From positions 757 to 64,756 of the forward strand of contig CAZIFD010000003.1 of the NCBI GenBank assembly GCA_964538685.1: a stretch of DNA of 64,000 nucleotides, given 5' to 3'. The stretch's first letter is position 1; each line of letters starts with the position of its first letter. Below are positions 16,510-37,150 of the stretch, one piece after another. The stretch comes from an uncultured Bdellovibrionales bacterium. Lineage in GTDB: Bacteria > Patescibacteriota > Minisyncoccia > Moranbacterales > UBA2206. Below the pieces are notes generated by a model. That model was given only the letters and a program-made list of their open reading frames with translations. It ran no database searches and was not told the DNA's origin. The translations under genes and the position numbers were made by a program.

Positions 16510-16621
16510 CTGGAAAAGACCGCAGGAAAGATCAATTTATCAGCAGATCTATTTTCATAATTTATCAGAAAATAAATCAAGCAAGATTGGTTGCGTTTTC
16601 AACTCTTGACAAATCTCCCGA

Positions 16622-16662
16622 AATTAGTTAAGTTTCTTATTGTGTAAGAAACTTAACTAATT
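16622..16662. promoter_or_regulatory. Perfect 18-bp inverted repeat (AATTAGTTAAGTTTCTTA-N5-TAAGAAACTTAACTAATT), candidate MarR operator overlapping its promoter
   Basis: A TTGACA -35 at ~16603 and TAAGTT -10-like sequence lie inside the repeat. The marR start abuts the repeat. Confidence 0.6.
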
Positions 16663-17121
16663 TTGATTATGACACAAAGAAACAAAAATCTTCAGAAAAT
16701 TCTTGATTTTTTCCATCTACAAAGAAAGGTCATCATTCACAAAATTATTCAGGAAGTTTCCGAAAGCAGAGGAAAAATCTGCCTTACTCCTTCACAGTGG
16801 CCTCTCATAATGTTTTTGGAACACAATCAGGCTTCCAGCATCAAAGAACTCGCCAAAACTTTTGGCATAACCAGTTCGGCAGCCACCCAGCTAGTTGACG
16901 GTCTGGTGCAAAATAAATATGTTCAAAGAAAAAATGATCCCAATGATAGACGAAGAATACTCCTTAGTCTTACGTCAAAAGCCAAACAGGATTTGAAAGA
17001 AATCCAGAAAAAAACCGAAAAATTTCTTATATCAATTTTCAGTAATCTCTCCGAAAAGGAGCTGGAAAGTTATGTGAAAATAAACCAAAAAATAACTGAT
17101 ACACTTTTAAAAAAATCCTAA
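16663..17121 (+). CDS. MarR family transcriptional regulator
   Basis: Winged HTH (SIKELAKTFGITSSAATQLVDGLVQNKYVQRKNDPNDRRR). The ORF-track start is TTG at 16663; an ATG at 16669 is more likely. Confidence 0.85.
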   Translation: MIMTQRNKNLQKILDFFHLQRKVIIHKIIQEVSESRGKICLTPSQWPLIMFLEHNQASSIKELAKTFGITSSAATQLVDGLVQNKYVQRKNDPNDRRRILLSLTSKAKQDLKEIQKKTEKFLISIFSNLSEKELESYVKINQKITDTLLKKS

Positions 17122-17155
17122 ATTTAAATAATTATCAATAAATCACTTAAAAATT

Positions 17156-18247: not shown

Positions 18248-18254
18248 TAATCCG

Positions 18255-21638: not shown

Positions 21639-21654
21639 TAATTAAATTTGAAAT

Positions 21655-21692
21655 CAAAAACAGCTCCAATCAAGGAGCTGTTTTTTGGTTGG
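21655..21692 (+). terminator. Rho-independent terminator (AAAACAGCTCC-AATCAA-GGAGCTGTTTTTT)
   Basis: GC stem plus T-run after the RND gene. It also faces the convergent lipoprotein gene. Confidence 0.55.
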
Positions 21693-21704
21693 AATCTATC
21701 TCCC

Positions 21705-22085
21705 CTATTCACTTTCCGCATTTTCCGGTCTTCCCGGTCGGCAAGCCAAGGCGTCAGATTGAGGATTTTTTTCACAAGTTCCGCTTATCTCCCGAGCTTC
21801 ATCTTCGTTAGGCGGAGTCATAGAAAAAGAACAATTGTCTCCTTCGGATTTGTCCGTACAAGCTGTTTTAGCTTCTTCGGATTGAACTCCCGAAGCACCG
21901 CCGGGACCATTCCCTTTGGCATCACCTTGTTTTTTTTCTTGGTTTCCGCTTCCGGTTTCTGATTGCTGAACCTGATTGGCCTCCTGAGTTTGCTCCTGAT
22001 TTTGTTTTTGTTCAGCTTTTCCACAACCGGAAAGCACCAAAACAAACAGAAGAAGCCCGGAAATTGCCAATAGTTTTTTCTTCAT
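21705..22085 (-). CDS. Lipoprotein, low-complexity Q/E-rich with C-terminal Cys cluster
   Basis: Lipobox LSGC after the signal peptide. Confidence 0.5.
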   Translation of the reverse strand: MKKKLLAISGLLLFVLVLSGCGKAEQKQNQEQTQEANQVQQSETGSGNQEKKQGDAKGNGPGGASGVQSEEAKTACTDKSEGDNCSFSMTPPNEDEAREISGTCEKNPQSDALACRPGRPENAESE

Positions 22086-22100
22086 TGTTTTTTAATTAAA

Positions 22101-22613
22101 TTATTTAATTTTAATGGTTTTAGCTGTAATTGAATCAGAACTCACCGAATCGGCGCTCACCACAATTTGACCATCTACCGCCAAATCATTGGCGCTTTGA
22201 GAAACTATTTTTTCCACCACTGTTGAATCGGAAAGAACTATGGTTTTGGTTCCGTCTTGAGTTTCAATAGTGAAACTCTGACCGTCCTTAGAAACAATCT
22301 TTCCTTCAATTGTTTTTTCCAAATTACAATTAGGTCCGGTTCCATCTTGAAGTCCTTTGCCGGAATTCATTCGCTGACCACTACCGTCTTTTCGCCCCAT
22401 TTCTTGATCATTATCACTGTTGAATTTTCCTTTTCCGTCAAAATTATTTCCTTGACCCTGAAAAAATTGACCTTGCGGATTAGCCGGAAAACTTCTTCTT
22501 CCCAAGCTGGCTCCACCCACAAAAGCCAATCCGCCAACCAAAACAATTATCACTCCTCCGGCTAAAGCTATGAGCAATTTTTTATTGTTTTTAATATCGT
22601 TATTGATATTCAT
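22101..22613 (-). CDS. Membrane-anchored hypothetical protein (disordered G/Q-rich linker plus C-terminal beta domain)
   Basis: N-terminal TM and a C-terminal repeat-like beta region (DGQSFTIETQDGTKTIVL). Confidence 0.45.
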   Translation of the reverse strand: MNINNDIKNNKKLLIALAGGVIIVLVGGLAFVGGASLGRRSFPANPQGQFFQGQGNNFDGKGKFNSDNDQEMGRKDGSGQRMNSGKGLQDGTGPNCNLEKTIEGKIVSKDGQSFTIETQDGTKTIVLSDSTVVEKIVSQSANDLAVDGQIVVSADSVSSDSITAKTIKIK

Positions 22614-22718
22614 TTTTTTATGTTTCCTGAAAAAGCAGGAAATCCTGCCAATTTCAAGAAAATAGATTGATTAAGGCACAAAAATCTTGCGCCTTAATGT
22701 TTACGAAACAAAAATAAA

Positions 22719-22745
22719 AAAGATGCAAAAAGCATCTTTTTTCAG
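22719..22745. terminator. Bidirectional hairpin terminator (AAGATGC-AAAAA-GCATCTT flanked by A- and T-runs)
   Basis: Palindrome with flanking A/T tracts. Confidence 0.5.
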
Positions 22746-22787
22746 AAAACAAACCACAATTGGCAGAACAATAGAATACTCGCTCTA

Positions 22788-23141
22788 TTATTTCAATCCA
22801 CTTATTACTTTATGAAAATCCCAAATATCCGCTCGTAAATTTAGAAATAATTCATTTTTTATTAGATTATTCTTTTTAAATACATCCGCCAGTTGATGCA
22901 AATAATTATAAATAAGACTGTCAAATCTATATTCTCTGTTAAATCTATATCCTTCATCAAGTTCATTTTTTTCAAACTTATCTATCATTTCCTCAAAAAT
23001 TTCTTTTATTTGCTTTTTTAAATTATCATCAATTTCCGACAAATCAATATGCTCAAACCAATCCCTTTTTCTTTTTTCTACTTCTTTGGCACATAATTCT
23101 TTGCGCGATAACTCCGGACAAGATTCAAAATTATTTTCCAT
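22788..23141 (-). CDS. Hypothetical protein
   Basis: 117-aa ORF with no recognisable motif. Confidence 0.4.
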   Translation of the reverse strand: MENNFESCPELSRKELCAKEVEKRKRDWFEHIDLSEIDDNLKKQIKEIFEEMIDKFEKNELDEGYRFNREYRFDSLIYNYLHQLADVFKKNNLIKNELFLNLRADIWDFHKVISGLK

Positions 23142-23225
23142 ATTTTTAATTTATGCTAATTATTTTTATTTTTTGATTCCAGCTTCAAATATATGACCGT
23201 CAATTTTTATATCATTTTTTTTAAT

Positions 23226-23831
23226 TTACAGCAAAAAACTCTTTCCAACAAGATGCCAAACGGCTTTTTGAACAACCTTGTTCAGCTTTGAAATCTTTTC
23301 GTCATCCAACTTTCTGCATTTACCAATTTGATAAACTTTTGTTTTTATCCCGCAAAATTCCAAAATATCATTTTTAATATTTTTCTTGGGACGATTGCCT
23401 CGTAAATAAGAATACCAAATCGGTCCTCCGCTGGTCATTATTACTATCGCTTTTTTGCCCTTAAGAAGTTTTTTGGGTAAAACATTTTCGTATCTATATC
23501 CAAATCCAGGAGTAATAATTCTATCAAAGAAGCCCTTGAGAATCGCCGGCATCGCTCCCCACCAAATCGGATAAATAAAGATGAAATGATTGCTTCCGAT
23601 TATTTTCTTTTGAATAGATAAATTTTCTGCAGATATATTTCTATTTCCGGAAGTGTAATGTTCGTCTTCTCGCAAAATTGGATCATAATTCATTTTATAC
23701 AAATCCAAAACCTCATAGGGAATATTTCTTGCCACAAGTTCTTCTATGGTTTTTTCCAAAATTTTTGGACAATGTCCTTTTGTTTTGGGATGAGCATAAA
23801 CAATCAGTATTTTCATAAATTGAGCATCCAA
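23226..23831 (-). CDS. Flavodoxin-like NAD(P)H-dependent oxidoreductase (quinone reductase family)
   Basis: KILIVYAHP N-terminus typical of the Flavodoxin_2/NQO fold. Confidence 0.7.
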   Translation of the reverse strand: MDAQFMKILIVYAHPKTKGHCPKILEKTIEELVARNIPYEVLDLYKMNYDPILREDEHYTSGNRNISAENLSIQKKIIGSNHFIFIYPIWWGAMPAILKGFFDRIITPGFGYRYENVLPKKLLKGKKAIVIMTSGGPIWYSYLRGNRPKKNIKNDILEFCGIKTKVYQIGKCRKLDDEKISKLNKVVQKAVWHLVGKSFLL

Positions 23832-24289
23832 ATTGAATAATTTAGGTAGCCAGCGAAACTAACCCACAAAATATATGGTACCAGTAGCCAAGAAGCTAAT
23901 TTTGATATTTTTGCAAAAGCAATGATTGTGCCAAAAATAGCGAGCCAAAGAAAAATCATTTCCAAAAGCGCGCCACCTGGACTATGCAATCCAAAAAAAA
24001 TAATGGACCAAAGCATATTCAAAAACATTTGAACTCCAAAAGCCCAATAGGCCAAGCGTTTGTTTTTTCCGCTTTCGCTTACCCAGACCAGATATAACGC
24101 ATAGCCCATCAAAAGAAACAATGTTGTCCAGACTGGACCAAAAACCCAGCTCGGCGGATTGAGAGCCGGCTTAATTAGCACCGGATACCAATCTTTAACC
24201 GAACCGACCGTAAAAAAACTACCGATTCCCCCTGCCAGTTGCGGAATCAGCAAAGAAATTATGAGCTTAATAAAATTGTTTCTTCTCAT
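23813..24289 (-). CDS. tspO: TspO/MBR tryptophan-rich sensory protein
   Basis: 5-TM protein with Trp-rich motifs (PPSWVFGPVWTTLF). Confidence 0.8.
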   Translation of the reverse strand: MRRNNFIKLIISLLIPQLAGGIGSFFTVGSVKDWYPVLIKPALNPPSWVFGPVWTTLFLLMGYALYLVWVSESGKNKRLAYWAFGVQMFLNMLWSIIFFGLHSPGGALLEMIFLWLAIFGTIIAFAKISKLASWLLVPYILWVSFAGYLNYSIWMLNL

Positions 24290-24460
24290 TTTTGAAACTT
24301 AAACAAACGCCCATAAAACAAAAATTGAAGCAAAATTGTAAGTCCTATATCTTTCCAAAAAAATACCAACTTCGCTTATGTTTTGAATATTTCCTATTTT
24401 ATCTTAATTTCCGAGCAAAATCAAAAATTACAAATATAATCTTTCGGAATCTATCCTTTT

Positions 24461-25198
24461 CTAAACCAACATCGTCAAACCAACATGCACAAGAACACTG
24501 AGAAATAGTCCTAAAATGAATAATGGAATCTTTCCATATTTATGAGCCATAGGAAACAATTCATGCAAAGAAACAAAAATCATCGCCCCTGCCGCAAAAG
24601 CCATAAAAAAAGAGTTTAAACTAGGAAAAAATTCTAAAGTAGCCAAACCCAGAACGGCTCCTGCTGGTTCGGCCAAAGCTGAAAGAAAGGCCGCCTTCAG
24701 GACCAACTCTTTTTTCTTTGCCAATAAAAGTGGTACCGCCATAGCAAATTCTTCGGGAATATTGTGAATAGCAATCGCCAATGCCACCAAGATTCCCAAA
24801 GAAGAAGAATGAATGTAAGAAGTAGCCATAGCGAATCCTTCCGGAAAATCATGTAAAATCAACCCGATAACAATCAAATAGGCAGTTTTAATCAGAGTTC
24901 TTTTCCTTCCTTCATTCTCTTTGACTAAATGAGTATGAGGAATTATCAAGTTTAAAATTCCAATAAAGAACACTCCTAAAAATAAACCCAAAAATGTCTT
25001 GACCAATCCAGATGCTTCCAATGACTCGGGAATTAGCTCAAAAAAAGAAATTAGAAGCATAATGCCGACCGAAAAACCAATGCCAATAACTATTCCCTTA
25101 ACGCTTTTTTTGAAAAAGAAAGCCAGCCCCACTCCAATGATTGTGGAGACAACAGAAAGACAAGATAAAAGGATTATTGCAATAGAAGTTTTTTCCAT
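24461..25198 (-). CDS. zupT: ZIP family metal transporter
   Basis: HDFPEGFAMA and HNIPEEFAMA metal-binding motifs. Confidence 0.8.
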   Translation of the reverse strand: MEKTSIAIILLSCLSVVSTIIGVGLAFFFKKSVKGIVIGIGFSVGIMLLISFFELIPESLEASGLVKTFLGLFLGVFFIGILNLIIPHTHLVKENEGRKRTLIKTAYLIVIGLILHDFPEGFAMATSYIHSSSLGILVALAIAIHNIPEEFAMAVPLLLAKKKELVLKAAFLSALAEPAGAVLGLATLEFFPSLNSFFMAFAAGAMIFVSLHELFPMAHKYGKIPLFILGLFLSVLVHVGLTMLV

Positions 25199-25302
25199 TT
25201 TGAAATAAAATTATATTTGAATATGTTTCGTTGTCCTAATCATCACCCTTGCCACAATTAAATTACTGAATTTATTCCTGAATTTATCTTAAGCTTACAA
25301 TA

Positions 25303-26940
25303 TTAACATTTTTTTTCAAGCATTTCTTTGGCCATTGCAATTGCTTCCGTACTGCTTTTAGCAACAAATTTTTCTCCCCCCAAAAGATCAATAATTCCGT
25401 TCTTCTTCAAATTTCTAAAAACATTTTTTTGCATAGTGGCTAAAATAATTTTTCCGCCATTCGCAAGCACTTCGTCAATTAAAAGTTCCAAAGCGTGCAT
25501 AGCTGTCGCATCAATTTCATCTACATGTTTCATACGAATAATCAAAACTCCGTCTTGAGAATATCCCATACGCTCCTGCATCACACTGGCGGCGCCGAAA
25601 AACATTGGTCCATTTATTTCATACAAAGAAATTTGCGGAAAATTACTGATACTGGCATGCAATTTTTTACTTCCCTCACTGCCAATTTTTACATTATCTT
25701 CCAAACTGATCACTCGGATATCACTCACGCGTTTAACAAACAACAATGCCGCCATCACAACCCCAACTCCCACTGCCACAGTCAAATCCGCAAAAACTGT
25801 CAAAAGAAAAGTCGCAAGCAAAACAATGACATCGCGTCGGGGAGCTTTCATCAGTTTTTTGAAATGATCAATTTCAGCCATATTATAAGCCACAATAAGT
25901 AAAATCGCAGCCAAGGCAGACAATGGAATAACTTTAGCATAGCGAGCAAAAATTAAAATAATCAGAAGCAAAACAAAAGCGTGGATGATTCCGGCTATTC
26001 TGGTTCTTGCTCCGTTTTTAATGTTTGTGGCAGTTCTTGCTATCGCTCCTGTCGCCGGAATTCCTCCAAAAAAAGGCACCACCACATTGCCAATTCCTTG
26101 CGCAATCAATTCTTTGTTTGAATTATGTTTTGTTCCGGTCATACCATCTGCCACTACTGCAGAAAGCAAAGACTCAATTGCGCCCAGCATAGCTACCGTA
26201 AAAGCCGAAGGCAAAAGAAGCTTCATATTTTCAAAATTGAAATCCAACATATGAAAAGACGGCAGACCGGCTGGAATATCCCCTACAATCGGAATTTTGC
26301 CAGCAAAAAAAAGACTAGCGACAATTCCCCCCAAAAGAGCTACGGGTGCCGGCGGAAATTTTTTATTGTATTTTTTCCAAATGAAAAAAACTGCCAAAGT
26401 AACCAAACCAACAACTATGGCTGGCAAGGTTATGCCTCGTTCAAAACTTTCAAAAATCATTTTGACCGTATCAATAAAATCAAGCGGGCGCTTGCCTTCA
26501 AAATCCAAACCGAGGAAATTTTTTATCTGACCAGAAAATATTATTACTGCAATACCAGAAGTAAATCCAACGGTAACGGGATATGGGATATATTTAATGA
26601 TTGATCCGAACTTAAAAGCACCCATCAAAATCAATATGATACCCGCCATAAATCCTGTCATCAACAATCCTTCCACTCCAAATTTATTAACAATACTCAA
26701 TAAGATCACAATAAATGCTCCCGTTGGTCCGGACACTTGATATTTTGAACCCGAAAAAACAGCAATGATTCCACCGGCAATTATTGCTGTATAAAGTCCT
26801 TGCTCAGCGCTTACTCCCGAAGCAATGGCAAAGGCGATAGATAGTGGCAAAGCCACCAAACCAACAACTATCCCTGCAATCAAATCTGCTTTCAAATCAT
26901 TTTTTAGGTACATCCTGACTGACTTTTTTGTAAAAAACAT
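25303..26940 (-). CDS. SulP family anion transporter with C-terminal STAS domain
   Basis: 545 aa polytopic protein with a STAS-like C-terminal tail. Confidence 0.85.
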   Translation of the reverse strand: MFFTKKSVRMYLKNDLKADLIAGIVVGLVALPLSIAFAIASGVSAEQGLYTAIIAGGIIAVFSGSKYQVSGPTGAFIVILLSIVNKFGVEGLLMTGFMAGIILILMGAFKFGSIIKYIPYPVTVGFTSGIAVIIFSGQIKNFLGLDFEGKRPLDFIDTVKMIFESFERGITLPAIVVGLVTLAVFFIWKKYNKKFPPAPVALLGGIVASLFFAGKIPIVGDIPAGLPSFHMLDFNFENMKLLLPSAFTVAMLGAIESLLSAVVADGMTGTKHNSNKELIAQGIGNVVVPFFGGIPATGAIARTATNIKNGARTRIAGIIHAFVLLLIILIFARYAKVIPLSALAAILLIVAYNMAEIDHFKKLMKAPRRDVIVLLATFLLTVFADLTVAVGVGVVMAALLFVKRVSDIRVISLEDNVKIGSEGSKKLHASISNFPQISLYEINGPMFFGAASVMQERMGYSQDGVLIIRMKHVDEIDATAMHALELLIDEVLANGGKIILATMQKNVFRNLKKNGIIDLLGGEKFVAKSSTEAIAMAKEMLEKKC

Positions 26941-27156
26941 AGCCGTAAATTTTGTTAATTAAAAATAAAGTCCAGCCTTTTGGGCTGGTTAACCGGTAAC
27001 TATAAATTGCCAGAAAAACAAAACACCGCGTGCACTAACAAACGCTGGTGATTCTATATTTCAAACTATTAAGGCACTTGGCTCACAATGATAGATTATA
27101 TTCTCATTTAAAAATTTTGCAAGTGCTTGTTTTTATGCATTTTTACAGATGATTTA

Positions 27157-27251
27157 TTCCTGAATTAATTCGGGAATTTGTTGCCAATTAAGTAAGCTAA
27201 TGACCGTCCCAGAATGGTTCTATTTTTTTATTATATCACTAAACAAAAACA
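27157..27251. repeat. 95-bp direct repeat, copy A (94/95 identical to 33651..33745). Contains a near-palindromic operator TTCCTGAATTAATTCGGGAA and a minus-strand extended -10 (TGATATAAT)
   Basis: Direct sequence comparison of the two copies. Confidence 0.85.
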
Positions 27252-27556
27252 ACCGCGTTTAGCGATTGTATTTGTGGAAGGTCGCGCCTTTAGATCATCT
27301 TCTCAGTGTCGCCGGATTTCTAATAACTTTTTATGGCTTTCGTATCTCCTACCGATCGGACCCTATCTGTCGAGTCGCAGTTTCCCAATAACCTTTTACT
27401 TACTTCTCCGCCAAACATATTTATATCCAGGAGGTGCTGGTGGTTTTGGTGGTTTGATTTCCGGAATTCTTGGGATACGAGGCCCTCTTGGACCTCTAGG
27501 AATTTTAATTTTTGGAATCACAAGCGGACCATTGGGATCTTTTATCAGCTTCCATG

Positions 27557-28939
27557 TCATACCCTTTCACCCCCTTTCTCAATCATCTCTTCAACTTTTC
27601 TTTTGGCTTCTTCTAATAATTCTTTGGCTTTCCTGCGCGCTCCATGTGACTTCTGCACAAGATTGGCAATTTTTTCTTGAATTTCTTTTGGCAAAATTGG
27701 AACAACGACATTTTTAATTTGCTCCGGTTTCCAGTGAGCAATGACCGACCCGCCAGCATCTCGTTCAGCCTGCATTTGTCCGACCAAAGAATTTAGACAT
27801 AGTGCCAAATATTCTGCTTCGACATCATCATCTTTTAATTTTAACCGCAAAGTTCCGCCAGAAATAATACCTTGGATATCTTCTTTGAGAACGTAAGCAA
27901 TCCCTGGCGTCGCATCCTTGGTTAAAAGGATTTCGCCTTTTTTCGGCTCAAAATTATTTTTTAACTCATCATATAGCTTATCGCTCAAGTATTTTTGATC
28001 ACTTTCAACCACCCCAAATTTTGTCATACTACTAACTCGAATAAAAACTTTGCCTTCTTCCTGATATTCTTCCGCTCCAACCTCAATCCCTTTTCTCACA
28101 GAAACCAAATCGCTCAGTTTTTTGAAATTTTGAGATTTGATTTTCAAAAATAGTTTCTCATATTTTTTTTGAAAATATTCCGCATCTATCCGCTCTGCAC
28201 CCAAGACATCCGAAAAATTTACAATCGTTGATAAATTTTCCCCCGCATCAGAATTTTCTAAATTCAATTCTTTCAAGAGTAGCCTTTCGGCTCGTTGATA
28301 AAAGCTAATAGACTTTCTTTTTTCATTTACAATTTCAGAATATAAATCTTCAAAAATATCATACTTTGCACTTTCGCTTAATGGCACAATTAAACTCTCT
28401 ATATCTAAAACATTTAACTTTAATTGGATATTTCCACTAGCTTTTCTAAAAATTTGCGCCTGACCAAACTTGCTTAATAGAAAAAATAAAATGAAAGATT
28501 TTATTTTATTGTTTAAATTTTGCAATCTTATTCCAATATTATTTTCGCTTATATTAACTTCCCCGAAGCTATCATCAATAACAGACAGCCTGCCAATTGT
28601 AGCAATTTTTGATAGAACGATATCTCCAATATTCAAATGGGTGCTATAAATTCTTTTATTTTCTTCCTCTGAAATATAAACTAAATTATCTTTATCAATA
28701 AAAATGTCCGAAATATCACCAATGCGAATAAATGGGATGCCGTCGCTTTGATATGATTCGCTTTTCAGGGTAGAGCCAAATGGACCGCTAAAAACTTTTT
28801 CTGATATATTTTTTATTGTTTCGAATTTATTTTTTTTTATTTGATTTTCCACATCTAAATACTCTGGCTGATAATATTCAGCATCCAATCGCATCGCGCC
28901 TTCAAGTTGAGATTTTTGGATTATTGAAAAAGTTATCAT
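27557..28939 (-). CDS. hsdS: Restriction-modification specificity subunit (HsdS/BcgIB-like, two target-recognition domains)
   Basis: Duplicated TRD-plus-conserved-spacer architecture (RLDAEYYQPEY ... ERIDAEYFQKKY). Confidence 0.8.
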   Translation of the reverse strand: MITFSIIQKSQLEGAMRLDAEYYQPEYLDVENQIKKNKFETIKNISEKVFSGPFGSTLKSESYQSDGIPFIRIGDISDIFIDKDNLVYISEEENKRIYSTHLNIGDIVLSKIATIGRLSVIDDSFGEVNISENNIGIRLQNLNNKIKSFILFFLLSKFGQAQIFRKASGNIQLKLNVLDIESLIVPLSESAKYDIFEDLYSEIVNEKRKSISFYQRAERLLLKELNLENSDAGENLSTIVNFSDVLGAERIDAEYFQKKYEKLFLKIKSQNFKKLSDLVSVRKGIEVGAEEYQEEGKVFIRVSSMTKFGVVESDQKYLSDKLYDELKNNFEPKKGEILLTKDATPGIAYVLKEDIQGIISGGTLRLKLKDDDVEAEYLALCLNSLVGQMQAERDAGGSVIAHWKPEQIKNVVVPILPKEIQEKIANLVQKSHGARRKAKELLEEAKRKVEEMIEKGGERV

Positions 28940-28940
28940 T

Positions 28941-29270
28941 TTATTTGCTAAAAATCCACTTATATTTTTTAAGTTTTTCGAGATATGTTAACTCTGCCTT
29001 CTTTTTATCTATTTTATTATCATATTTTACCCTTAAGACATTCTCGATTTTTGTTCTGATGCCAGAAAAAGTTAGGCCTCTTCTAGCCATATCCGCCTTA
29101 ATATTTTCTTGATCTTTCAAATATTCATTTTTTAATTCTGCTATTTCTATTCTCTTTATTTCTATTTCCTTATCAATTTCAAGGCCCTTTAATTTTCTAT
29201 TTTCTAAATACAAATAGACAGTCATCAGTCCCAATATGCCATTCAGTATTTTGGATATTATATCCCACAT
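28941..29270 (-). CDS. Small protein with N-terminal TM and coiled-coil
   Basis: 109 aa with a 2-bp gap to hsdS. Confidence 0.45.
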   Translation of the reverse strand: MWDIISKILNGILGLMTVYLYLENRKLKGLEIDKEIEIKRIEIAELKNEYLKDQENIKADMARRGLTFSGIRTKIENVLRVKYDNKIDKKKAELTYLEKLKKYKWIFSK

Positions 29271-29276
29271 ATTCCT

Positions 29277-29591
29277 TTATAAAATTTTAACTATAATTTT
29301 AATCATAAAATAAGCTGAAACTATTAAACCAAACAAAAACATTCCCCATAGAAACTTTCCAAAATATGTTGTCTCATAGCTAAAAATTCCGCTAGGAGTG
29401 GGTAAAGAGTCTTTTCTTTTACCCAACAAAATTGAAAGTCCCATAATAGTCACCCCCATTGATAAACCGAACAAATTTTTATTTTCAAGAAAAGAAATGT
29501 CATACTGAACAGAAATAAACATCAAAAAAATTCCCAAATAAATAAAGATGTAAAATTTATTAATTTGTAATTTTCCAATGACTTCCTTCAT
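29277..29591 (-). CDS. Small 3-TM membrane protein
   Basis: 104-aa hydrophobic ORF in the same operon. Confidence 0.45.
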   Translation of the reverse strand: MKEVIGKLQINKFYIFIYLGIFLMFISVQYDISFLENKNLFGLSMGVTIMGLSILLGKRKDSLPTPSGIFSYETTYFGKFLWGMFLFGLIVSAYFMIKIIVKIL

Positions 29592-29644
29592 TTTTAAAAA
29601 TATTATCCTTGATTAAAGCGTATTATTGGTGAGTATAGCGACTA

Positions 29645-29756
29645 TTGACAATCTATCAGAAACTGCTATACTTACAATGTCTTTCGGTCAACATAGACTG
29701 AAAGGGTATTACATCCAAGAGCAGTCCTCCTTGCGGAGGGCTGTTTTATTTCTTTT
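29645..29756 (+). ncRNA. Candidate small RNA, antisense-oriented within the RM/NYN operon
   Basis: Near-consensus promoter (TTGACA 29645-29650, 16-nt spacer, TATACT 29667-29672). About 78 nt downstream lies a GC hairpin (CAGTCCTCC-TTGC-GGAGGGCTG) followed by TTTTATTTCTTTT. An 8-bp inverted repeat (AGTATAGC/GCTATACT) brackets the promoter. Confidence 0.3.
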
Positions 29757-30327
29757 CAGATCTGTATCTCAACTCCTTCCCCCAAACATCTTCTTCAATT
29801 TTCAATACATCAAAATATCCGTCGCCACCGGTTTTCAATTCCCGAGAAGCGTTGTTTTCTGAAGAAAAAATATATACCTTCTTGCCCCTATTTTTTAAAT
29901 AAGTTACCAATGCTAAAAAATCCGAATCTCCACTGAATAATATCGCAGTATCATATTTCTTTATATGGTGCATTGCATCTATTGTCATTTCAACATCCAT
30001 GTTTCCCTTTTCCTCGATAGCCTGTCCGTTATCCGTAACTATCGAAATGCGTTTCAGTTCCTTTTTTCTAACAACAAAACCCAAACCCTTCTTCAGGAAT
30101 GTAAAAAACTTATGCTTTCCATCCGTGCTATAATCACGAGTTCCTTCGGCCGGATAAGCAGTATAATAAAATACTTTTATTTCGGTTGACTCAAATTTGT
30201 TTTTAAGGTAGTTTCTTAATTTTTCTAAATCAAAAAGTCTCCCCTTCGTCTTTTGAGCTTGCCAAAGATTGGAAGCGTCAACAAAAACATAGACTGCATT
30301 TTTATTTTGTTTTTCTTGGTCATGCAT
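29746..30327 (-). CDS. NYN domain (LabA-like) nuclease
   Basis: Conserved acidic motifs VFVDASNL, DVEMTIDAM and SGDSDF. Sits 6 bp downstream of the methyltransferase gene. Confidence 0.75.
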   Translation of the reverse strand: MHDQEKQNKNAVYVFVDASNLWQAQKTKGRLFDLEKLRNYLKNKFESTEIKVFYYTAYPAEGTRDYSTDGKHKFFTFLKKGLGFVVRKKELKRISIVTDNGQAIEEKGNMDVEMTIDAMHHIKKYDTAILFSGDSDFLALVTYLKNRGKKVYIFSSENNASRELKTGGDGYFDVLKIEEDVWGKELRYRSEKK

Positions 30328-30332
30328 AATAT

Positions 30333-32264
30333 TTATTTTTTCATAAACCTCAAAAACTCTTCCGCGATTTCTTCCAGATCATGATCAATGATTTTCTTTC
30401 CATTCGGGTCAAACATCACATTTCCATCCTTGTCTTTCTTGTAGACATAATCCCCCGAAGTATCTTTTCCGCCTCTCTTTGAAACCGCCATAAAAATCGG
30501 ATAGTCATCTACTTTTGGACAAAGCGGTCCGGCCTTCGGATCATCATTCCATTTTTGCAAAAACAACACGCTTGTTTTTGTCCCGGTATGCGGCTTGAAA
30601 GTGTTTCCATGAAGTCCAACGACTGCCAAAAGCCTGGCTTTGTCCAGAAAGAAACGGCGCACATATTCCATTTGAGTATTATTCAGGATTCCTTGCGGCA
30701 AAACAATGGCCATTCTTCCGCCCGGTTTTAGAAAATTCAAGTCTCTTTCAATAAAAAGAACATCGCGAGAAACCTTGTTTTGATGCTTATTGGTTTTTTG
30801 AAAATCTTTGTCCCACTTAAAGCCCAGGTCATATCGATTGAGAAGTACCCCTTTGATTTCTCCGGCAAATGGCGGATTAGTGATGACTATATCAAAATCA
30901 AAGTCTGTCATTTTCTCCTGATTTCTTCTGTCTTCTTCCGGATCTTTTAATTTTCTAAGAAATGGCCGGAATTTAGCTTTGGCCTCTTCATTCCAAACTT
31001 CGCTGTCGAGTGAATTGGCATAAGTCACATTAGTTTTTCCGTCTCCAGCAATCAGCATCATGGCTTTTCCGATTTTAACACTGCGAGGATCAAAATCGAT
31101 TCCAAACAAACGTTTTTCGGCATAGTCTTTGCGTTCCACATCGTAGCGCTCGCCATATTTTTCTTTGGTAATTTCCCTTTTCCAAACATATTGCATGGCA
31201 TGAAGCAAAAAACCACAGCTTCCGGCTGCCGTGTCGATAATATAATCATTGGAAGTTGGAGCAAGCATCTTGACGGCCATATCAATAACATGGCGTGGTG
31301 TGAAATATTGGCCCTTTTCTCCTTTGGCATCCAGATTGATTAAATATTCAAAAGCATCGTCAATCACTTGAAGATTTGATCCAAACAGGCGGTATTTTTG
31401 AAGAAGAGAAACTGCCGGCACAACAACATTTTCTGGAATCTCCAATTCATCATTTGCCTTGAAAACTTCCCGCCACTCTCTTTTGGCATCTTCGAAAAGA
31501 CGTTCAATATTATTGAGATTTTCTTTGTTGGTAGCTCCAGCGATTACCCTAAACCTTCTATTTTCATTTCTTGGAGTCCGAATATCATCATAGAGCTTGG
31601 CATAGATAAGTTTGAAAATTTCATCAAAAGAATTAACGCCACTATTAGCCAGAACGACTTCCTGCAGATCATAGACCAGTTGCTGCAGATTTGGGATTTC
31701 ATCCAAGTCGTCATAAGTAAGCTTTTTTGTTCTAACATCCTCCACCGTTTCATTGAATTTGGGAATTTCCGGCAAATCTTCAAAAAGGTTAGGATCGGTT
31801 CGGAGAATATTATTTTGAATTTTTCCGTCCGTTAGAATCAGGATCGGCGCGCCAGTCGCATTAGCGTAGCTCTTGAGCTGCCCTAGTCCATCTTTTACAT
31901 CAGGTTTTTTGACCTCAACCACAAGGTATGGAGTTTTTCCGTCTTCCCGATAAATTACAATGTCCGCCCTTTTAGATCCAATCTCTCTTCCAAATTGAAC
32001 ATCTACCTCAACATCCAGTCGATCTAGGGGATATTTATAAAAATTAACCAGCTTATATATCATAAGTTGGCGAACAATTTCTTCCGGTTTAGCTTGGATA
32101 CTTTTTTTTCTTTTTAAACATTCAAGATAATATTTTCCTTCTTTTTCCGAAAAGCGAATAACTTCTTCAATAGTAATTCCTTCAAAAACCGAAAGCCCAA
32201 ATTGCATATCTGGATTATGAAATATCTTGCCCAAAATTTCGCTAGTCTTTTTTTGATCTACCAT
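30333..32264 (-). CDS. Fused PD-(D/E)xK endonuclease (HsdR_N-like) plus gamma-class N6-adenine DNA methyltransferase (BcgI-A-like type IIB / type I-like RM subunit)
   Basis: N-terminal D...EVK nuclease motif (RADIVIY...YLVVEVKKP). MTase motif I (IIDTAAGSCGFLL) and motif IV (NPPF). Confidence 0.8.
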   Translation of the reverse strand: MVDQKKTSEILGKIFHNPDMQFGLSVFEGITIEEVIRFSEKEGKYYLECLKRKKSIQAKPEEIVRQLMIYKLVNFYKYPLDRLDVEVDVQFGREIGSKRADIVIYREDGKTPYLVVEVKKPDVKDGLGQLKSYANATGAPILILTDGKIQNNILRTDPNLFEDLPEIPKFNETVEDVRTKKLTYDDLDEIPNLQQLVYDLQEVVLANSGVNSFDEIFKLIYAKLYDDIRTPRNENRRFRVIAGATNKENLNNIERLFEDAKREWREVFKANDELEIPENVVVPAVSLLQKYRLFGSNLQVIDDAFEYLINLDAKGEKGQYFTPRHVIDMAVKMLAPTSNDYIIDTAAGSCGFLLHAMQYVWKREITKEKYGERYDVERKDYAEKRLFGIDFDPRSVKIGKAMMLIAGDGKTNVTYANSLDSEVWNEEAKAKFRPFLRKLKDPEEDRRNQEKMTDFDFDIVITNPPFAGEIKGVLLNRYDLGFKWDKDFQKTNKHQNKVSRDVLFIERDLNFLKPGGRMAIVLPQGILNNTQMEYVRRFFLDKARLLAVVGLHGNTFKPHTGTKTSVLFLQKWNDDPKAGPLCPKVDDYPIFMAVSKRGGKDTSGDYVYKKDKDGNVMFDPNGKKIIDHDLEEIAEEFLRFMKK

Positions 32265-32268
32265 ATTA

Positions 32269-32907
32269 TTACTCTACTTTAGAAAGATTTAAAATTACTT
32301 TTCCCTGGAATTCAACTTCTTCCGGAATAATCACCTTGGCTTCATAGGCTGGATTTTCCGGTTTCAAATATCTCTTTCCGCCTTCAGCAATAAAGCGTTT
32401 AACAGTTGTTCCTTCATCCGTCCTGGCAATGACAATATCTCCGCTCTTGTATTCTTTTGATTCCTTAACTAATAATTTGTCCCCGTCATCGATGCCAGCG
32501 TTGATCATAGAGTCTCCGCTAACCTTTATGATAAAAACATCCTTTATCTGCTGAATATTTTCGTTATATAAAAATTTATCAGACAACGGCATCCAACTGG
32601 TAAAAGCATCGACATAAGATTCAATATATGGTCCGCCCGCGCTTGTTCCGGCAACCCTAACCAGAGGTTTTCTGTTTATTTCTTTATACCCTAAAGGCAA
32701 TATCTTAATTCCACGCGCTTGTCCATCCTCGCGCTTAATACATTCCTTCCTTTCTAATATCTCCAGAAAATTCAAAACCGATTGATTAGAAGACACACCC
32801 AATTCCTCTTTCAAGTCCGCCAAGGTTGGCGGAAATCCAGAAGATTGAATAGCGTCATATATTGACTCAAGGACTTTTTTCTGTTTTGAAGTAAGATATT
32901 TACTCAT
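32269..32907 (-). CDS. lexA: LexA repressor (wHTH plus S24 peptidase)
   Basis: N-terminal LexA DNA-binding domain. C-terminal Ser (GDSM) and Lys (KR) catalytic dyad. 4 bp upstream of the MTase gene. Confidence 0.8.
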   Translation of the reverse strand: MSKYLTSKQKKVLESIYDAIQSSGFPPTLADLKEELGVSSNQSVLNFLEILERKECIKREDGQARGIKILPLGYKEINRKPLVRVAGTSAGGPYIESYVDAFTSWMPLSDKFLYNENIQQIKDVFIIKVSGDSMINAGIDDGDKLLVKESKEYKSGDIVIARTDEGTTVKRFIAEGGKRYLKPENPAYEAKVIIPEEVEFQGKVILNLSKVE

Positions 32908-33103
32908 TAATCTAATTATATATGACTATAAAGTCTTGTCAAGTGTCTTTATTTAAGCCATTTTTAAACTATTTATTTTAGGATAAAAATCTTGACTTAT
33001 TTCGAGAACCTGCTAAAATTATACCTTAGAAGTACTTTTCTGGTTCCCCAGAAACCAGTTAATAAACCTGCCGGAGTCTGGGGCAAGGGCCTACAATAAA
33101 ATT

Positions 33104-33420
33104 ATGATTGGATCATTCAGGGAACCTTTTCCGTTTAACAATGATTCTGTCTCGAGAAACGCACCTGATTCAATGGGAGTTTATTACTGCGGGAAATTAA
33201 AGACAGACAATGTCAACGCGCTTTCACCCGTCCACTATGTTGGAATGTCAGGAGAAAGCATAAAGGGTCGTTTACAGGATCACATACGAAAAGACAATTG
33301 GCCAGATGTGACTCATTTCGGTTTTGAGGTATGATCTACTGAGTCTGAAGCTGAAAATCAAGAAGCAAGAGAAATTGCTCGGCTACGACCAAAATATAAC
33401 GAGCAGGGAAAATAGTTATA
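33104..33420 (+). pseudogene. GIY-YIG nuclease gene interrupted by an in-frame TGA
   Basis: GVYY...YVGMSG...R motif, then a TGA at 33335. The frame continues through ESEAENQEAREIARLRPKYN, giving the GIY-YIG Glu/Asn residues. Confidence 0.5.
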
Positions 33421-33435
33421 TTTTGTAACGCTGGA

Positions 33436-33468
33436 AAGAGCTAGTTTAGTCTAGCTCTTTTTCATTTC
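33436..33468 (+). terminator. Hairpin terminator (AAAGAGCTAG-TTTAGT-CTAGCTCTTT plus T-rich tail)
   Basis: Palindrome followed by TTCATTTCTT. Sits between the convergent GIY-YIG pseudogene and the AbrB-like gene. Confidence 0.5.
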
Positions 33469-33638
33469 TTCCAATCCCTAATCACCACTCCCCCACGGAC
33501 GCGCTTGACGACAACTTTCTGTTTCTCTTTCCACCCAAGCTCACGAACAACTTCAATCGGCAAAGTCAATCCGATTGATCCGTTGCCGGATTTAGTCAGC
33601 TTGCGAATGTCTTTTTCGGTTAATTTTTTGTTTGCCAT
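33462..33638 (-). CDS. AbrB/SpoVT/MazE-family small DNA-binding protein (antitoxin-like), orphan copy
   Basis: 58 aa MANKKLTEKDIRKLTKSGNGSIGLTLPIEVVRELGWKEKQKVVVKRVRGGVVIRDWKK. Not in the ORF track (under 60 aa). It is 83% identical in core to the 35228..35407 paralog. Confidence 0.55.
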   Translation of the reverse strand: MANKKLTEKDIRKLTKSGNGSIGLTLPIEVVRELGWKEKQKVVVKRVRGGVVIRDWKK

Positions 33639-33650
33639 AAGTTTTATTAA

Positions 33651-33745
33651 TTCCTGAATTAATTCAGGAATTTGTTGCCAATTAAGTAAGCTAATGACCG
33701 TCCCAGAATGGTTCTATTTTTTTATTATATCACTAAACAAAAACA
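33651..33745. repeat. 95-bp direct repeat, copy B. Contains the perfect 20-bp palindrome TTCCTGAATTAATTCAGGAA and a minus-strand TGATATAAT -10 driving the AbrB-like gene
   Basis: Identical to 27157..27251 except one base (A/G inside the palindrome). Confidence 0.85.
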
Positions 33746-33758
33746 GCTACATTGGTAG

Positions 33759-34592
33759 CTATTTCTTACTGTTTAATTTAAGTTGCTTAGCATTCTTTTT
33801 GGTTATAACTTTTCTGCCAGTTTTTTTCTCTATGTCTTTTCTAGCATTACCGGCCACACTGCCACCTTCGCGCGCCGTTTGTCTGTTTTCTTCAAAATTT
33901 TTCGGCTCGCGTTTTTGCGAAATTTCAGTCGTGACAGTTTCCGCCAACATATTCAATACCAATTCCAAATTAGTCATATTGTCGCGCAAATTTTCTTTTT
34001 TCAAATCTTTTAATTTTTTATACTCTTTTGTTGTGAGTCCTGCCCAAGCTTTAGTAATTTCATTGGTTAATATAGCAAAATCCAAACCTTCTTTCACTCC
34101 ACGCATTTCCCATTCATCAGTTAAAGATTTTCTAATTTCAATACTCTTTAGTCTTTGATTGATCCATTCTCGGCTATAGCCTTTTTGTAGATAAGTTTTC
34201 AAGGCGCGATTGATTGCCAATTCCGGATCAGCGGTTTCCTCCAATCTTTCATAACCAACCCGAGCCAACCAAAGCTTAAAAGGCTCAGCCTTTGGCGAAG
34301 GCACGGATTGAATAAGGCGAAGAACATTTTCCGTATCCAAAACATCAGTCAGATAGAATTTGCCGTCGCTGGCTTGCATTTTCAGTTGTCCGATTTTTTC
34401 GGACAACTCACTTCCCTCCTTTTTCAGCTTATTTTTCAGGTCATTCCAGTATTTTCTTGGCCGATCAGTTTGCGCCAATATTTGAATTATATCCATCACC
34501 GAAAAATACCACAGCTCTTTTTCCTCGTCCCAGTGACGGCGAATTTGCTTACCCTCAAAAATCGCAATTTGTTTTATCTTCTTGGATTTCAT
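33759..34592 (-). CDS. DinD-like DNA-damage-inducible protein with N-terminal Bro-N domain
   Basis: N-terminus IAIFEGKQIRRHWDEEKELWYFSVMDIIQIL (Bro-N). The C-terminal half resembles DinD. Confidence 0.65.
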   Translation of the reverse strand: MKSKKIKQIAIFEGKQIRRHWDEEKELWYFSVMDIIQILAQTDRPRKYWNDLKNKLKKEGSELSEKIGQLKMQASDGKFYLTDVLDTENVLRLIQSVPSPKAEPFKLWLARVGYERLEETADPELAINRALKTYLQKGYSREWINQRLKSIEIRKSLTDEWEMRGVKEGLDFAILTNEITKAWAGLTTKEYKKLKDLKKENLRDNMTNLELVLNMLAETVTTEISQKREPKNFEENRQTAREGGSVAGNARKDIEKKTGRKVITKKNAKQLKLNSKK

Positions 34593-34675
34593 AGATTTAA
34601 ATTATTACTGCCGGTTTTCCCAATCTTCACTAAACCAGAAACCGCGGTTGTCATGATATAAATAATTCCTTTCAT
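34589..34675 (-). other. 28-codon mini-ORF encoding a GIY-YIG-like N-terminal fragment (MKGIIYIMTTAVSGLVKIGKTG); its TGA overlaps the ATG of the DinD-like gene
   Basis: Direct translation. GIIY and KIGKT match GIY/YIG positions. The ATGA overlap suggests coupling or a relic of a fused GIY-YIG/T5orf172-Bro-N gene. Confidence 0.3.
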
Positions 34676-34850
34676 ATTTATTCACTTAAATAGTATTTTC
34701 TATAGAATCATTTATTTAAATCATCTACTATATAATTAATCCCATCTTTAATTCCAACAAAACCCTTCGTATAAACATGGCCACTCTCTTTTGACTTCCC
34801 TATTTTATATAGGATATCACCAACTGAATCCCAAACCTCTCTTATCTTAT

Positions 34851-35240
34851 TTATGCAGCCTGATTAAAAAATCGATAGTTGTCTTCCTGAATAATATTTT
34901 TCGACAGATGACCAATGTGCTGATTGCGGAGTATCACGCAAAATTTCATTTCTTTTTTTGCATTATCAATATCAATCTTTCGTGCGCCTTCTAAATCAAT
35001 GGCATATAGTGACCAACAGTCTTTTCTTTTTTGAAAAAATAAATCTATAGTTATCGCAATACTTCTAGTTAGATTATCAAGTATGAGCTGAAAACCAAAG
35101 TTATATCGATTACTTTTTATTTCAATGTTTTGGAAGAACTTATCATAAGCGTAAAGCTGATCATGTAATTTTAACCACTCCCTATAGAGAAAATGATAAA
35201 TTTTTTCTTTCTCTTTTTCCATTTCCCTTACTTCCTCCAA
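34851..35240 (-). CDS. Hypothetical protein with HEPN-like Rx5H motif (candidate toxin)
   Basis: 129 aa, predicted helical, with RNQHIGH near the C-terminus. Its start overlaps the stop of the upstream AbrB-like gene by 13 bp. Confidence 0.4.
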   Translation of the reverse strand: MEEVREMEKEKEKIYHFLYREWLKLHDQLYAYDKFFQNIEIKSNRYNFGFQLILDNLTRSIAITIDLFFQKRKDCWSLYAIDLEGARKIDIDNAKKEMKFCVILRNQHIGHLSKNIIQEDNYRFFNQAA

Positions 35241-35407
35241 TCCTTAATCACTACTCCTCCACGAACGCGCTTAACAATAACCTTTTGCTTTTCTTTCCAG
35301 CCTAAATCATCCACCATATCTTTCGGCAAAGTAAGCCCGATAGATTTCCCACCACCGGATTTGGTTAATTTTCTAATATTATTCTCGCTTTGAATTCTTC
35401 TGGCCAT
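35228..35407 (-). CDS. AbrB/SpoVT/MazE-family small DNA-binding protein (candidate antitoxin)
   Basis: 59 aa MARRIQSENNIRKLTKSGGGKSIGLTLPKDMVDDLGWKEKQKVIVKRVRGGVVIKDWRK. Preceded by the CTGAATTAATTCCTGAAT operator-like motif. Confidence 0.55.
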   Translation of the reverse strand: MARRIQSENNIRKLTKSGGGKSIGLTLPKDMVDDLGWKEKQKVIVKRVRGGVVIKDWRK

Positions 35408-35524
35408 ATTTTTGTTTTATAAATTACTGAATTAATTCCTGAATACTTTCAGCTTTTCAGACTTATTCTCCCCCTCAAAAACTACCCTAAGCTTATAACA
35501 AAACACGGCTTTAGTAAAACCAAG

Positions 35525-35556
35525 TTTGATATCAAAAAACCCGCCGTTAGGCGGGA
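35525..35556 (-). terminator. Rho-independent terminator (CCCGCC-GTTA-GGCGGG plus T-run on the minus strand)
   Basis: GC hairpin followed by T-run, immediately after the 35547..36173 gene. Confidence 0.55.
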
Positions 35557-36173
35557 TTATTTACTCTTTTTTTTGCTTTTTCCCAAGCATACCTATATTC
35601 ATCTTCTTTTTCTGGACACACCAGCATTCTCCATTTGAATAATTTTTCCGCTTTCCCAGCTTGTTCTGCCAATAAAAATTCTCTCCTTAAAGCAAGTTGA
35701 TGATTCCTCTCTCTCATTTCTTGAGTAAATTCTTCCTCCCTTTCTTCCAAAAAACCCCTCTTTGCTCTTATCCATACTTCCGTTATCTCGTGCTCAATAA
35801 TGAAAGGAATCAAATCCTCATAATTTTCTCCGTCTATAGAGAACTTGCTAATATCAATGGCTATTTCAAGATTGGTGATATATTTTTCAAAATCATCTTT
35901 TGGGCTGATTTTAAAATTTATTAACCCAAGCGCCGGACTTTCAGCAAAATTTTCGCTCCAATTTTCATCATCAATCATACTGGAAAGCCAACTCAAAAAT
36001 TCTTGATGACTAAAATAGCTTATCTTATTTTTAGCCAATTCATAAAATGATTTTTTAGAATCATTAATGCTTTTCTCAATTTTGTGAGGAGGATTAATAT
36101 TTGAAGATTCTGGCATTTTAAACATTTTATACTTTCTTTCGTCTGTTTCATCCTTGTTTTGAAAATTCTCCAT
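35547..36173 (-). CDS. Hypothetical protein
   Basis: 208-aa acidic ORF with no recognised motif. Adjacent to the tRNA-Ser pair. Confidence 0.45.
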   Translation of the reverse strand: MENFQNKDETDERKYKMFKMPESSNINPPHKIEKSINDSKKSFYELAKNKISYFSHQEFLSWLSSMIDDENWSENFAESPALGLINFKISPKDDFEKYITNLEIAIDISKFSIDGENYEDLIPFIIEHEITEVWIRAKRGFLEEREEEFTQEMRERNHQLALRREFLLAEQAGKAEKLFKWRMLVCPEKEDEYRYAWEKAKKRVNNPA

Positions 36174-36190
36174 AATATTAATAAAACTTC

Positions 36191-36280
36191 TGGCGGGAAG
36201 GCAGGGATTTGAACCCTGGGACCCTTTTACAGGTCAACACGTTAGCAGTGTGCCGCTTTCAACCACTCAGCCACCTTCCC
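36191..36280 (-). tRNA. tRNA-Ser (anticodon GCU)
   Basis: Manual fold: GGGAAGG acceptor, long variable arm, anticodon loop CUGCUAA, encoded CCA. Confidence 0.85.
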
Positions 36281-36308
36281 AATATATATTTTTTAAAACT
36301 TCACTTTT

Positions 36309-36405: not shown

Positions 36406-36532
36406 CTAATCCAATTTTCGCATTTTAGCATTTAATAATCAATTTGTAAACCCAAGCTATTTTTTTATTATAACCTATTTTGGATAAACAATTAATCGTG
36501 CTAAAATCAAAAAAGAAAAATAAGCTAAAAAA

Positions 36533-37144: not shown

Positions 37145-37150
37145 TTTAAA

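Follow-up and report, generated by a model that had tools for sequence, protein, structure and literature searches.

Nobusato and colleagues reportedly described, in 2000, gene units of restriction-modification (R-M) systems inserted with long target duplication, and Sibley and Raleigh are said to have reported, in 2004, R-M substitution at the hsd/immigration control region of E. coli. The locus considered here, an R-M block lying between two 100-nt direct repeats, belongs to a 64,000-nt stretch of DNA (contig CAZIFD010000003.1, positions 757 to 64,756; this whole stretch is called the window below) from an uncultured member of the Moranbacteria, within the Candidate Phyla Radiation (CPR). 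R-M insertions with long target duplication have been defined by the presence of both R and M in the insert, an insert size of <20 kb, direct repeats of >30 bp and an empty site (Furuta, Abe & Kobayashi 2010, PMC2853133). The same work described loci at which an R-M system of one type has taken the place of another by allelic substitution, such as type III versus type I in Xanthomonas (PMC2853133). The core defence hotspots of Pseudomonas, for which homologous recombination has been proposed, are recombinase-free and flanked by core genes and non-coding RNA (transfer RNA (tRNA) or transfer-messenger RNA) (Johnson et al. 2023, PMC10250203). The block is a fresh example of two known patterns, namely R-M units lying between long direct repeats and the allelic replacement of R-M systems at a hotspot of defence genes; it is not a new kind of mobile element. 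It is probably the current occupant of a strain-variable R-M slot in a tRNA-Ser-adjacent defence island, exchanged by homologous recombination.

The two repeat copies, R1 and R2 (Table 1), are identical at 98 of 100 positions and spaced by 6,494 nt. Their exact core is 79 nt long (27173-27251 and 33667-33745), and a 25-mer census revealed no other long repeats in the whole window. An earlier reading of the window, made from the sequence only, had described 95-bp repeats at 27157-27251 and 33651-33745 with 94/95 identity; this was correct, the sole mismatch in that interval being G at 27172 versus A at 33666, and the second mismatch of the longer alignment is at 27155/33649. No longer decayed duplication beyond the repeat ends was found by blastn or tblastx, and an Rfam scan of the region showed no RNA family in the repeat. 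On the minus strand, which carries almost all the genes here, each copy opens with a T-tract belonging to a terminator-like hairpin; the two hairpins (27249-27269 and 33745-33760) have different stems. Each copy continues with an extended -10 sequence TGATATAAT (27230-27238 and 33724-33732), a ~60-nt leader and a palindrome, P. The minus-strand promoter element proposed for each repeat, TGATATAAT, is present in both copies; it has no -35 match and was not listed by the promoter scan, so that it is an extended -10 by its sequence only. Independent k=31 Logan assemblies were retrieved via exact-protein look-ups. Three contigs of run SRR5581382, L003 (window 27202..15303), L004 (42601..34389) and L005 (33696..27222, i.e., the block with 30-nt overlaps), are 100% identical to the window and come from the same strain. 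They reproduce the structure, and their breaks coincide precisely with the exact repeat (27202 is where L003 stops); the repeat is thus present in the reads.

A comparison is provided by a sister strain, represented by contigs L007 and L001 of run SRR30684748, in which unrelated type I R-M genes, spanning at least 9.3 kb, stand in place of window positions 27180-33629. On one side, L007 matches window 36197..33624 at 98.8% and contains a 208-aa gene, abrB-B, a HEPN-like gene and the Bro-N gene, followed by a full-length repeat 100% identical to R2, the leader ...AATTAATAAAACTTATGGCAAAC and then the type I hsdM. On the other side, L001 matches window 27179..15303 at 99.8%, and upstream of this match it carries a DUF3800 gene, two unknown genes, a fusion of HsdS with reverse transcriptase, and hsdR. 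The hsdR stop codon abuts P1 (GTGTAA followed by AATTCCCGAATTAATTCAGGAAT), which places the right junction exactly at the P1 edge, between 27179 and 27180. The downstream side of the sister cassette thus has only the 28-nt palindrome segment of the repeat, and the 72-nt promoter part is single-copy in this strain. That the block is accessory was anticipated in the sequence-only reading and is confirmed by the presence of a different, type I cassette between flanks 98.8-99.8% identical to those of the window.

A third state of the slot, the last of the three sampled in total, is found in a congener represented by the 467-kb contig L110, whose SulP is 84% identical. There, the gene order is tRNA-Ser, tRNA-Arg, tRNA-Ser, one unrelated gene and sulP; the entire interval 26941-36190 is missing and no repeat is present. 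The block thus sits inside a larger variable island adjacent to tRNA-Ser, which also contains the Bro-N candidate defence gene and an AbrB/HEPN-like pair. The expected comparison with relatives thus returned a substitution in the sister strain and absence of the whole island in L110, and not an empty site with a single repeat copy.

The distribution of single-nucleotide polymorphisms (SNPs) between the two strains was analyzed on both sides of the slot. Of the 22 SNPs on the sulP side, 20 are located in 23532-27139 (3.6 kb, 0.55%) and the remaining 2 in 15303-23531 (8.2 kb, 0.024%), a clustering with a binomial p of 6.5e-9. On the Bro-N side, ~29 differences are present within 2.5 kb, located in 33860-36156 (1.1-1.2%), and none in 36193-37390, the 1.2 kb past tRNA-Ser. 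This uneven SNP density around the slot points to a tract of ~12.7 kb, including the cassette, that was swapped between strains by homologous recombination and not by a dedicated recombinase, the crossovers being placed near a flavodoxin-like gene at one end and at the tRNA-Ser genes at the other. The imported tract is predicted to extend from ~23.5 kb to ~36.2 kb.

Genes for mobility were looked for as well. The island open reading frames (ORFs) scanned (22788-37144) contain neither an integrase nor a transposase domain, and no plasmid, phage or viral relatives were detected beyond generic methyltransferase similarity. A compositional comparison, of the kind that the sequence-only reading had proposed, gave no foreign signal: the GC content of the block is 0.364 vs 0.367 for the window, and its tetranucleotide distance is unremarkable, being exceeded by 20 of 116 equal-sized windows. 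An integrase-type element at a tRNA gene was rejected, as no integrase was found in the ORFs scanned and the repeat, which lies 2.4 kb from tRNA-Ser and has no tRNA similarity, is not derived from tRNA. An integron was rejected as well, given the lack of an integrase among these ORFs and the existence of homologous cassettes without P elsewhere. It had been suggested that the island was inserted into, or is excisable via, a duplicated AbrB promoter region. The duplicated abrB promoter/operator stands, but no empty site, no evidence of excision and no recombinase were found, and the exchange appears to be homologous and flank-wide.

Whether the sites travel with the cassettes can be judged from the relatives of both cassettes. 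The lexA-RM-NYN module of the window recurs at 78% nucleotide identity in another organism (contig L109, 728-4018), next to TspO, with homology beginning exactly at the lexA promoter; the type I system of the sister strain recurs at 82% beside radC (contig L116), with homology beginning 2 nt before the hsdM ATG. P and the repeat are absent from both, and therefore P and R belong to the locus and not to the mobile unit. The leader that follows P2, TAATAAAAC, is of the abrB type. Judging by this leader, substitution within an abrB-type arrangement, and not insertion into a naive site, must have given rise to the type I arrangement. The ATGGCAAAC sequence shared by abrB-A and hsdM was rejected as proof of hsdM fused to abrB-A codons: the HsdM family natively begins with Met-Ala-Asn, and thus the shared sequence is junction microhomology.

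The P sites are 22-24 bp long and are assembled from TTCAGGAA half-sites, which are inverted in P1 and P2 and direct in P3 and P4; an invariant core, ATTC..GAAT.AATTCAG.AAT, is common to all four. The palindrome noticed earlier in each repeat is indeed there, with 0.00 matches expected by chance. The four sites are confined to 10 kb of the 64 kb, and each of them is located between genes, at the border of a module. When their RNA folding was evaluated, P2 alone folded strongly (z of -4.2, with -0.8, -0.6 and +0.2 for the others). The conserved feature of P is therefore its DNA sequence, and an RNA hairpin or terminator was rejected. A LexA box was rejected too: the half-site is absent from the lexA promoter both here and in L109, which makes LexA an unlikely binder of P. 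A scan with the palindrome of one genome per species (185,579 species genomes) retrieved 21 matches, chance or coding only (one of them, L024, encodes ELIPELIPELI), with no abrB homologue adjoining any of them.

The origin of the repeat can be understood from the two small AbrB/MazE-type genes of the island. Their membership in this family follows from PF04014 scores of 29.2 and 31.2 bits, above the cut-off of 24.7, and abrB-A and abrB-B are 71-75% identical (71% at the protein level). The region upstream of abrB-B is homologous to the repeat, with the related site P3 and the same 'ATAAAAC' leader, and P is native to abrB genes for this reason. By the same homology, the repeat is best described as a promoter-leader-operator module native to small abrB/mazE-type genes, which bears out the earlier suggestion of an AbrB-type promoter/operator region. 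We infer that P serves as an operator for a protein; the simplest assumption is that AbrB-type proteins regulate their own genes through it. On its 3' side, abrB-A is followed by a terminator-like hairpin and then by an opposite-strand ORF; a type II toxin-antitoxin pair was not found, no toxin gene adjoining abrB-A. At 34851-35407 (minus strand; L007 5565-6265), the paralogue abrB-B overlaps the ORF that follows it, which has weak HEPN/AbiU2 similarity, and the two could be an antitoxin-toxin or abortive-infection pair, going by this similarity. In the window, this ORF is cut to 129 aa by a 1-nt deletion at 34855; in the sister strain, it is 171 aa long.

Since P copies bracket both alternative cassettes, and the right junction of the sister strain is at the P1 edge, P could be thought of as a site of site-specific recombination, either dif/Xer-like with a 9-6-9 structure (AATTCCTGA ATTAAT TCAGGAATT) or attC/attI-like, in which case the genes between P sites would be cassettes and the recombinase would be encoded elsewhere. 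The location of four P sites in 10 kb at intergenic module borders, with none elsewhere in the window, is in line with this possibility, as is the fact that the synteny of sulP and ZIP in relatives also breaks at P sites. We nevertheless consider it quite improbable. The island ORFs scanned contain no tyrosine or serine recombinase domain, homologues of both cassettes occur elsewhere without P, and the scan of species genomes gave only chance or coding matches. The left junction is outside P, ~20 nt from P2, at the start codon and with an 11-nt microhomology. Xer/dif-dependent modules (IMEX, pdif) use a 28-nt site in which unlike XerC and XerD arms flank a 6-nt centre and in which the crossover takes place; P can be written as 9-6-9 and is a perfect palindrome. 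The direct half-sites of P3 and P4 are unlike a recombinase core site. The SNP tracts in the flanks indicate homologous recombination.

The four consecutive module borders with P are those of the abrB-B module, the R-M slot, sulP and ZIP. A bolder proposal, which we hold to be decidedly unlikely, is that the promoter-leader-operator module is a fixed 'expression socket' under the control of resident AbrB/MazE proteins, with P sites serving as fragile or recognised points for the repeated joining of new DNA in a recombinase-free, integron-like cassette system. If this were true, any defence cassette landing in the slot would share AbrB/MazE control.

Alternatively, the repeat could be explained by regulation: R1 would have been copied, or kept by selection or gene conversion, placing sulP under AbrB-type control, P4 would do likewise for ZIP, and the near-identity of the copies would reflect conversion. 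Indeed, P1 is kept upstream of the sulP promoter in both strains, P4 is ~25 nt upstream of the ZIP -35 element, and the repeat copies are 98% identical compared with 71-75% for the abrB paralogues. However, sulP has its own promoter, which is kept in the congener, where no P lies upstream, so that sulP does not need R1. In the sister strain, the promoter part of R1 is missing and the sulP leader is otherwise unchanged, and the spacing from P to -35 differs between sulP and ZIP. AbrB/MazE-type proteins are not known to be linked to anion or zinc transport. We regard this explanation as unlikely.

The structure itself must also be considered, since a k=31 graph alone does not separate integration of the block from a circle that coexists with an empty site, and the Logan contigs, breaking at the repeat, fit either path. 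The block could accordingly lie outside the chromosome, or not only in it, as a circle of 6,494 bp made up of R and the block, with the empty site in the chromosome and the circle threaded by the assembler through the 79-nt repeat; in a related version, the deposited contig would be a chimeric join of two co-existing strains. This we find very improbable: the independently deposited 65.6-kb contig holds both junctions, the repeat is shorter than an ordinary read and would normally be resolved, and neither replication nor mobilisation genes occur in the block. The sister strain carries its cassette in the chromosomal slot, with the contigs running straight through R and P.

Several observations weigh against a strain-variable slot with homologous exchange. 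No single-copy empty site (Bro-N, R, sulP) was found in what is a thin sampling, and the step of target duplication is therefore one that we infer; a metagenome scan with the Bro-N protein gave 576 relatives, none sharing its flanks with the window, and likewise no empty site. The Logan graph fits 'empty site + 6.49-kb circle' equally well, and it is only in the deposited 65.6-kb contig that the block is joined to the chromosome. L007 and L001 were taken as one strain on account of their common sample and of the fragments of a DUF3800 gene at the end of each, but they do not overlap. The partial repeat of the sister strain, P without the promoter part, lies downstream of its cassette, and the position of the right junction, exactly where P1 ends, might reflect an event directed to the site or stimulated by the palindrome, and not chance.

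The same sample contains a further piece of the puzzle. L006, a 984-nt contig of SRR30684748 corresponding to window 33229..32246, carries lexA at 99.9% identity and terminates 23 nt beyond the lexA stop. No k-mer overlaps joining L007, L006 and L001 exist, and no exact RM-fusion gene is on record from this sample. From the way this contig ends and the missing exact fusion gene, the lexA module may exist there in a third, unseen context.

We can thus outline how an exchangeable slot might operate. The upstream module would express the first cassette gene, abrB-A here and hsdM in the sister strain, and the downstream copy lies behind the hsdS terminator, facing sulP. Between strains, ordinary homologous recombination exchanges the cassette along with several kb of its flanks. 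The repeat may have arisen on DNA entry or through rearrangement at the abrB promoter region, AbrB-type proteins presumably bind P, and RecA-type recombination between the copies could delete the block, leaving one copy.

As for R-M insertions with long target duplication, the unit contains R and M homologues, is smaller than 20 kb, and is bounded by 100-nt repeats with 98% identity; no mobile-element genes were found among the ORFs scanned in and beside it. The repeats are located at gene starts and stops, as in many of the described cases (PMC2853133). In contrast to those cases, the comparison strain shows no empty site but a substitution, with a full repeat and a partial copy repeating only 28 nt; moreover, the repeated segment is a recognisable promoter/operator module instead of anonymous target DNA, and the host is a CPR bacterium. 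Allelic R-M substitution is matched by homologous, near-identical flanks on both sides, by non-homologous R-M regions of unrelated types (type IIB-like vs type I) with a counterpart of more than 1 kb, and by apparent exchange through recombination in the flanks. The difference is that both cassettes would be read from one fixed promoter-operator-leader, and one of them also has a second module copy after it. The variable defence content between tRNA-Ser and sulP (PDC-S13, the AbrB-HEPN pair and R-M), without a mobile-element backbone, resembles core defence hotspots (PMC10250203), though the island is much smaller (9-13 kb) and resides in a reduced CPR genome. Integron arrays and the pdif modules of Acinetobacter are functional comparators only: they share with the locus swappable modules, a fixed upstream promoter and short palindromic border sites, but here no integrase was found and no asymmetric XerC/D-type site is apparent, the junctions are off the site centre, and the cassettes occur elsewhere without the site.

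The locus documents the turnover of defence genes at nucleotide resolution in an uncultured lineage with reduced genomes, with a natural sister-strain comparison. Unrelated R-M systems share one slot and one promoter/operator, with flank-borne homologous exchange and no mobile-element genes, which extends patterns known from Helicobacter, Haemophilus, E. coli and Pseudomonas. Pairing of the operator with AbrB, a strain-specific methylation motif and deletion through the repeats are predicted.

Table 1. Positions of the features of the R-M slot and its surroundings in the window
Feature	Position	Strand	Remarks
P4, solo site	25263..25282	minus	24/25 identical to P3; between sulP stop and ZIP-transporter promoter
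sulP, left flank	25303..27122	minus	own promoter 27095-27122 and leader
Repeat copy R1	27152..27251	minus	faces sulP; sulP-flank junction independently seen in Logan L003
P1, palindrome TTCCTGAATTAATTC(G/A)GGAA	27157-27176		in R1
Strain-specific segment, 6,450 nt	27180..33629	minus	BLAST and junction sequences vs sister strain
Proline-/arginine-rich ORF, 54 aa (…PRGPRGPRIPRIPEIKPPKPPAPP…)	27396..27560	minus	ATG overlaps hsdS stop (ATGA); no family
hsdS-type specificity subunit, 460 aa, two target-recognition domains	27557..28939	minus	Pfam Methylase_S; PADLOC Specificity_I 9e-53
Small ORF, 109 aa	28941-29270	minus	no family; hydrophobic/coiled, apparently membrane-associated
Small ORF, 104 aa	29277-29591	minus	no family; hydrophobic/coiled, apparently membrane-associated
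NYN-domain nuclease, last of lexA-RM-NYN operon	29746..30327	minus	terminator-like hairpin 29718-29747
RM fusion, PD-(D/E)xK-type HSDR_N_2 and N6-adenine methyltransferase (N6_Mtase)	30333..32264	minus	BsaXI/BcgI-like type IIB subunit
lexA, 212 aa	32269..32907	minus	Pfam LexA_DNA_bind and Peptidase_S24
lexA-operon sigma-70 consensus promoter TTGACA-16-TATAAT	32915..32942	minus	kept in L109
GIY-YIG-like ORF, 76 aa, status uncertain	33104..33334	plus	sub-threshold Pfam matches, E 0.056 and 0.23
abrB-A, 58-aa AbrB/MazE (SpoVT-AbrB fold) small DNA-binding protein	33462..33638	minus	Pfam PF04014 29.2 bits
Repeat copy R2	33646..33745	minus	same module; P2 12 nt upstream of abrB-A ATG; identical module precedes hsdM in sister strain
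P2, palindrome TTCCTGAATTAATTC(G/A)GGAA	33651-33670		in R2
Bro-N/DinD-like protein, 277 aa, right flank	33759..34592	minus	candidate defence gene, PADLOC PDC-S13 1e-131
abrB-B, paralogue of abrB-A	35228-35407	minus	1.8 kb away from abrB-A
P3, operator-like site	35424..35443	minus	upstream of abrB-B; half-site TTCAGGAA as direct, not inverted, repeat
tRNA-Ser(gct)	36191..36280	minus	outer boundary of variable island 26941-36190

The gene content listed for the block by the sequence-only reading (hsdS, two small ORFs, NYN, endonuclease-methyltransferase fusion, lexA and an AbrB-like gene) was reproduced, but its GIY-YIG 'pseudogene' has only sub-threshold matches. The lexA gene, the BsaXI-like RM fusion and the NYN gene form one tight operon (29746-32942, minus strand) with a single promoter. 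The lexA ATG is located 8 nt after the -10 element, and the messenger RNA of the operon is for this reason probably leaderless. The protein is a LexA by its TIGR00498 score of 140.2 bits (cut-off of 110.95) and by both Pfam domains. Since the same trio recurs in another organism, LexA seems to travel with this R-M system and perhaps controls it. In the literature library searched, LexA, restriction-modification and Candidate Phyla Radiation were not brought together in any paper.

The closest solved relative of the RM fusion is RM.BsaXI (PDB 8w0p, 1.8e-25); PADLOC assigns the fusion to type I methyltransferases. As predicted from its domains, and as in the type IIB enzymes BsaXI and BcgI, nuclease and gamma-class N6-adenine methyltransferase are joined in one polypeptide with a separate HsdS-like subunit. 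Unlike in those systems, the NYN gene and two small ORFs lie between the genes, and the fusion is co-transcribed with lexA. A methylation-associated defence system (MADS) was rejected, since MAD2 scored 316 against a cut-off of 720 and MAD5 157 against 400, with no further mad genes. The ATGA start/stop overlap suggests that hsdS and the 54-aa ORF may be translationally coupled. Downstream of this ORF lies the terminator-like hairpin 27249-27269, whose T-tract opens R1.

In the left flank (26941-27122, minus strand), the sulP promoter is followed by a leader of ~150 nt, which contains a terminator-like hairpin at 26972-26988 and a T-run ~30 nt before the ATG. By this layout, it looks like an attenuator or riboswitch; no Rfam family matched the leader. 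In the right flank, the terminator hairpin of the Bro-N gene (33745-33760) precedes R2. The Bro-N/DinD-like gene is unusually conserved and free-floating: proteins 62-92% identical to its product are encoded in >570 metagenome contigs (L029-L108 among them), which stem from widely differing habitats and have unrelated genes next to it. An additional insertion of 3.5 kb lies exactly beside tRNA-Ser(gct) in the sister strain, with a radical SAM protein and four small ORFs (window 36193; L007 1199-4774), and the insertion point is a second variable point of the same island.

Two features of the sister cassette deserve mention. At L001 1800-4427, an in-frame fusion of 875 aa combines the type I specificity subunit with a reverse transcriptase that has a maturase motif (Methylase_S, RVT_1 and GIIM), while the homologous L116 system has a plain HsdS of 400 aa; a group II intron was rejected, as Rfam found no intron RNA. 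Beside the DUF3800 gene of the cassette, at L001 374-443 (minus strand), the Rfam DUF3800-IX RNA motif was detected with 50.7 bits against a gathering score of 36.8.

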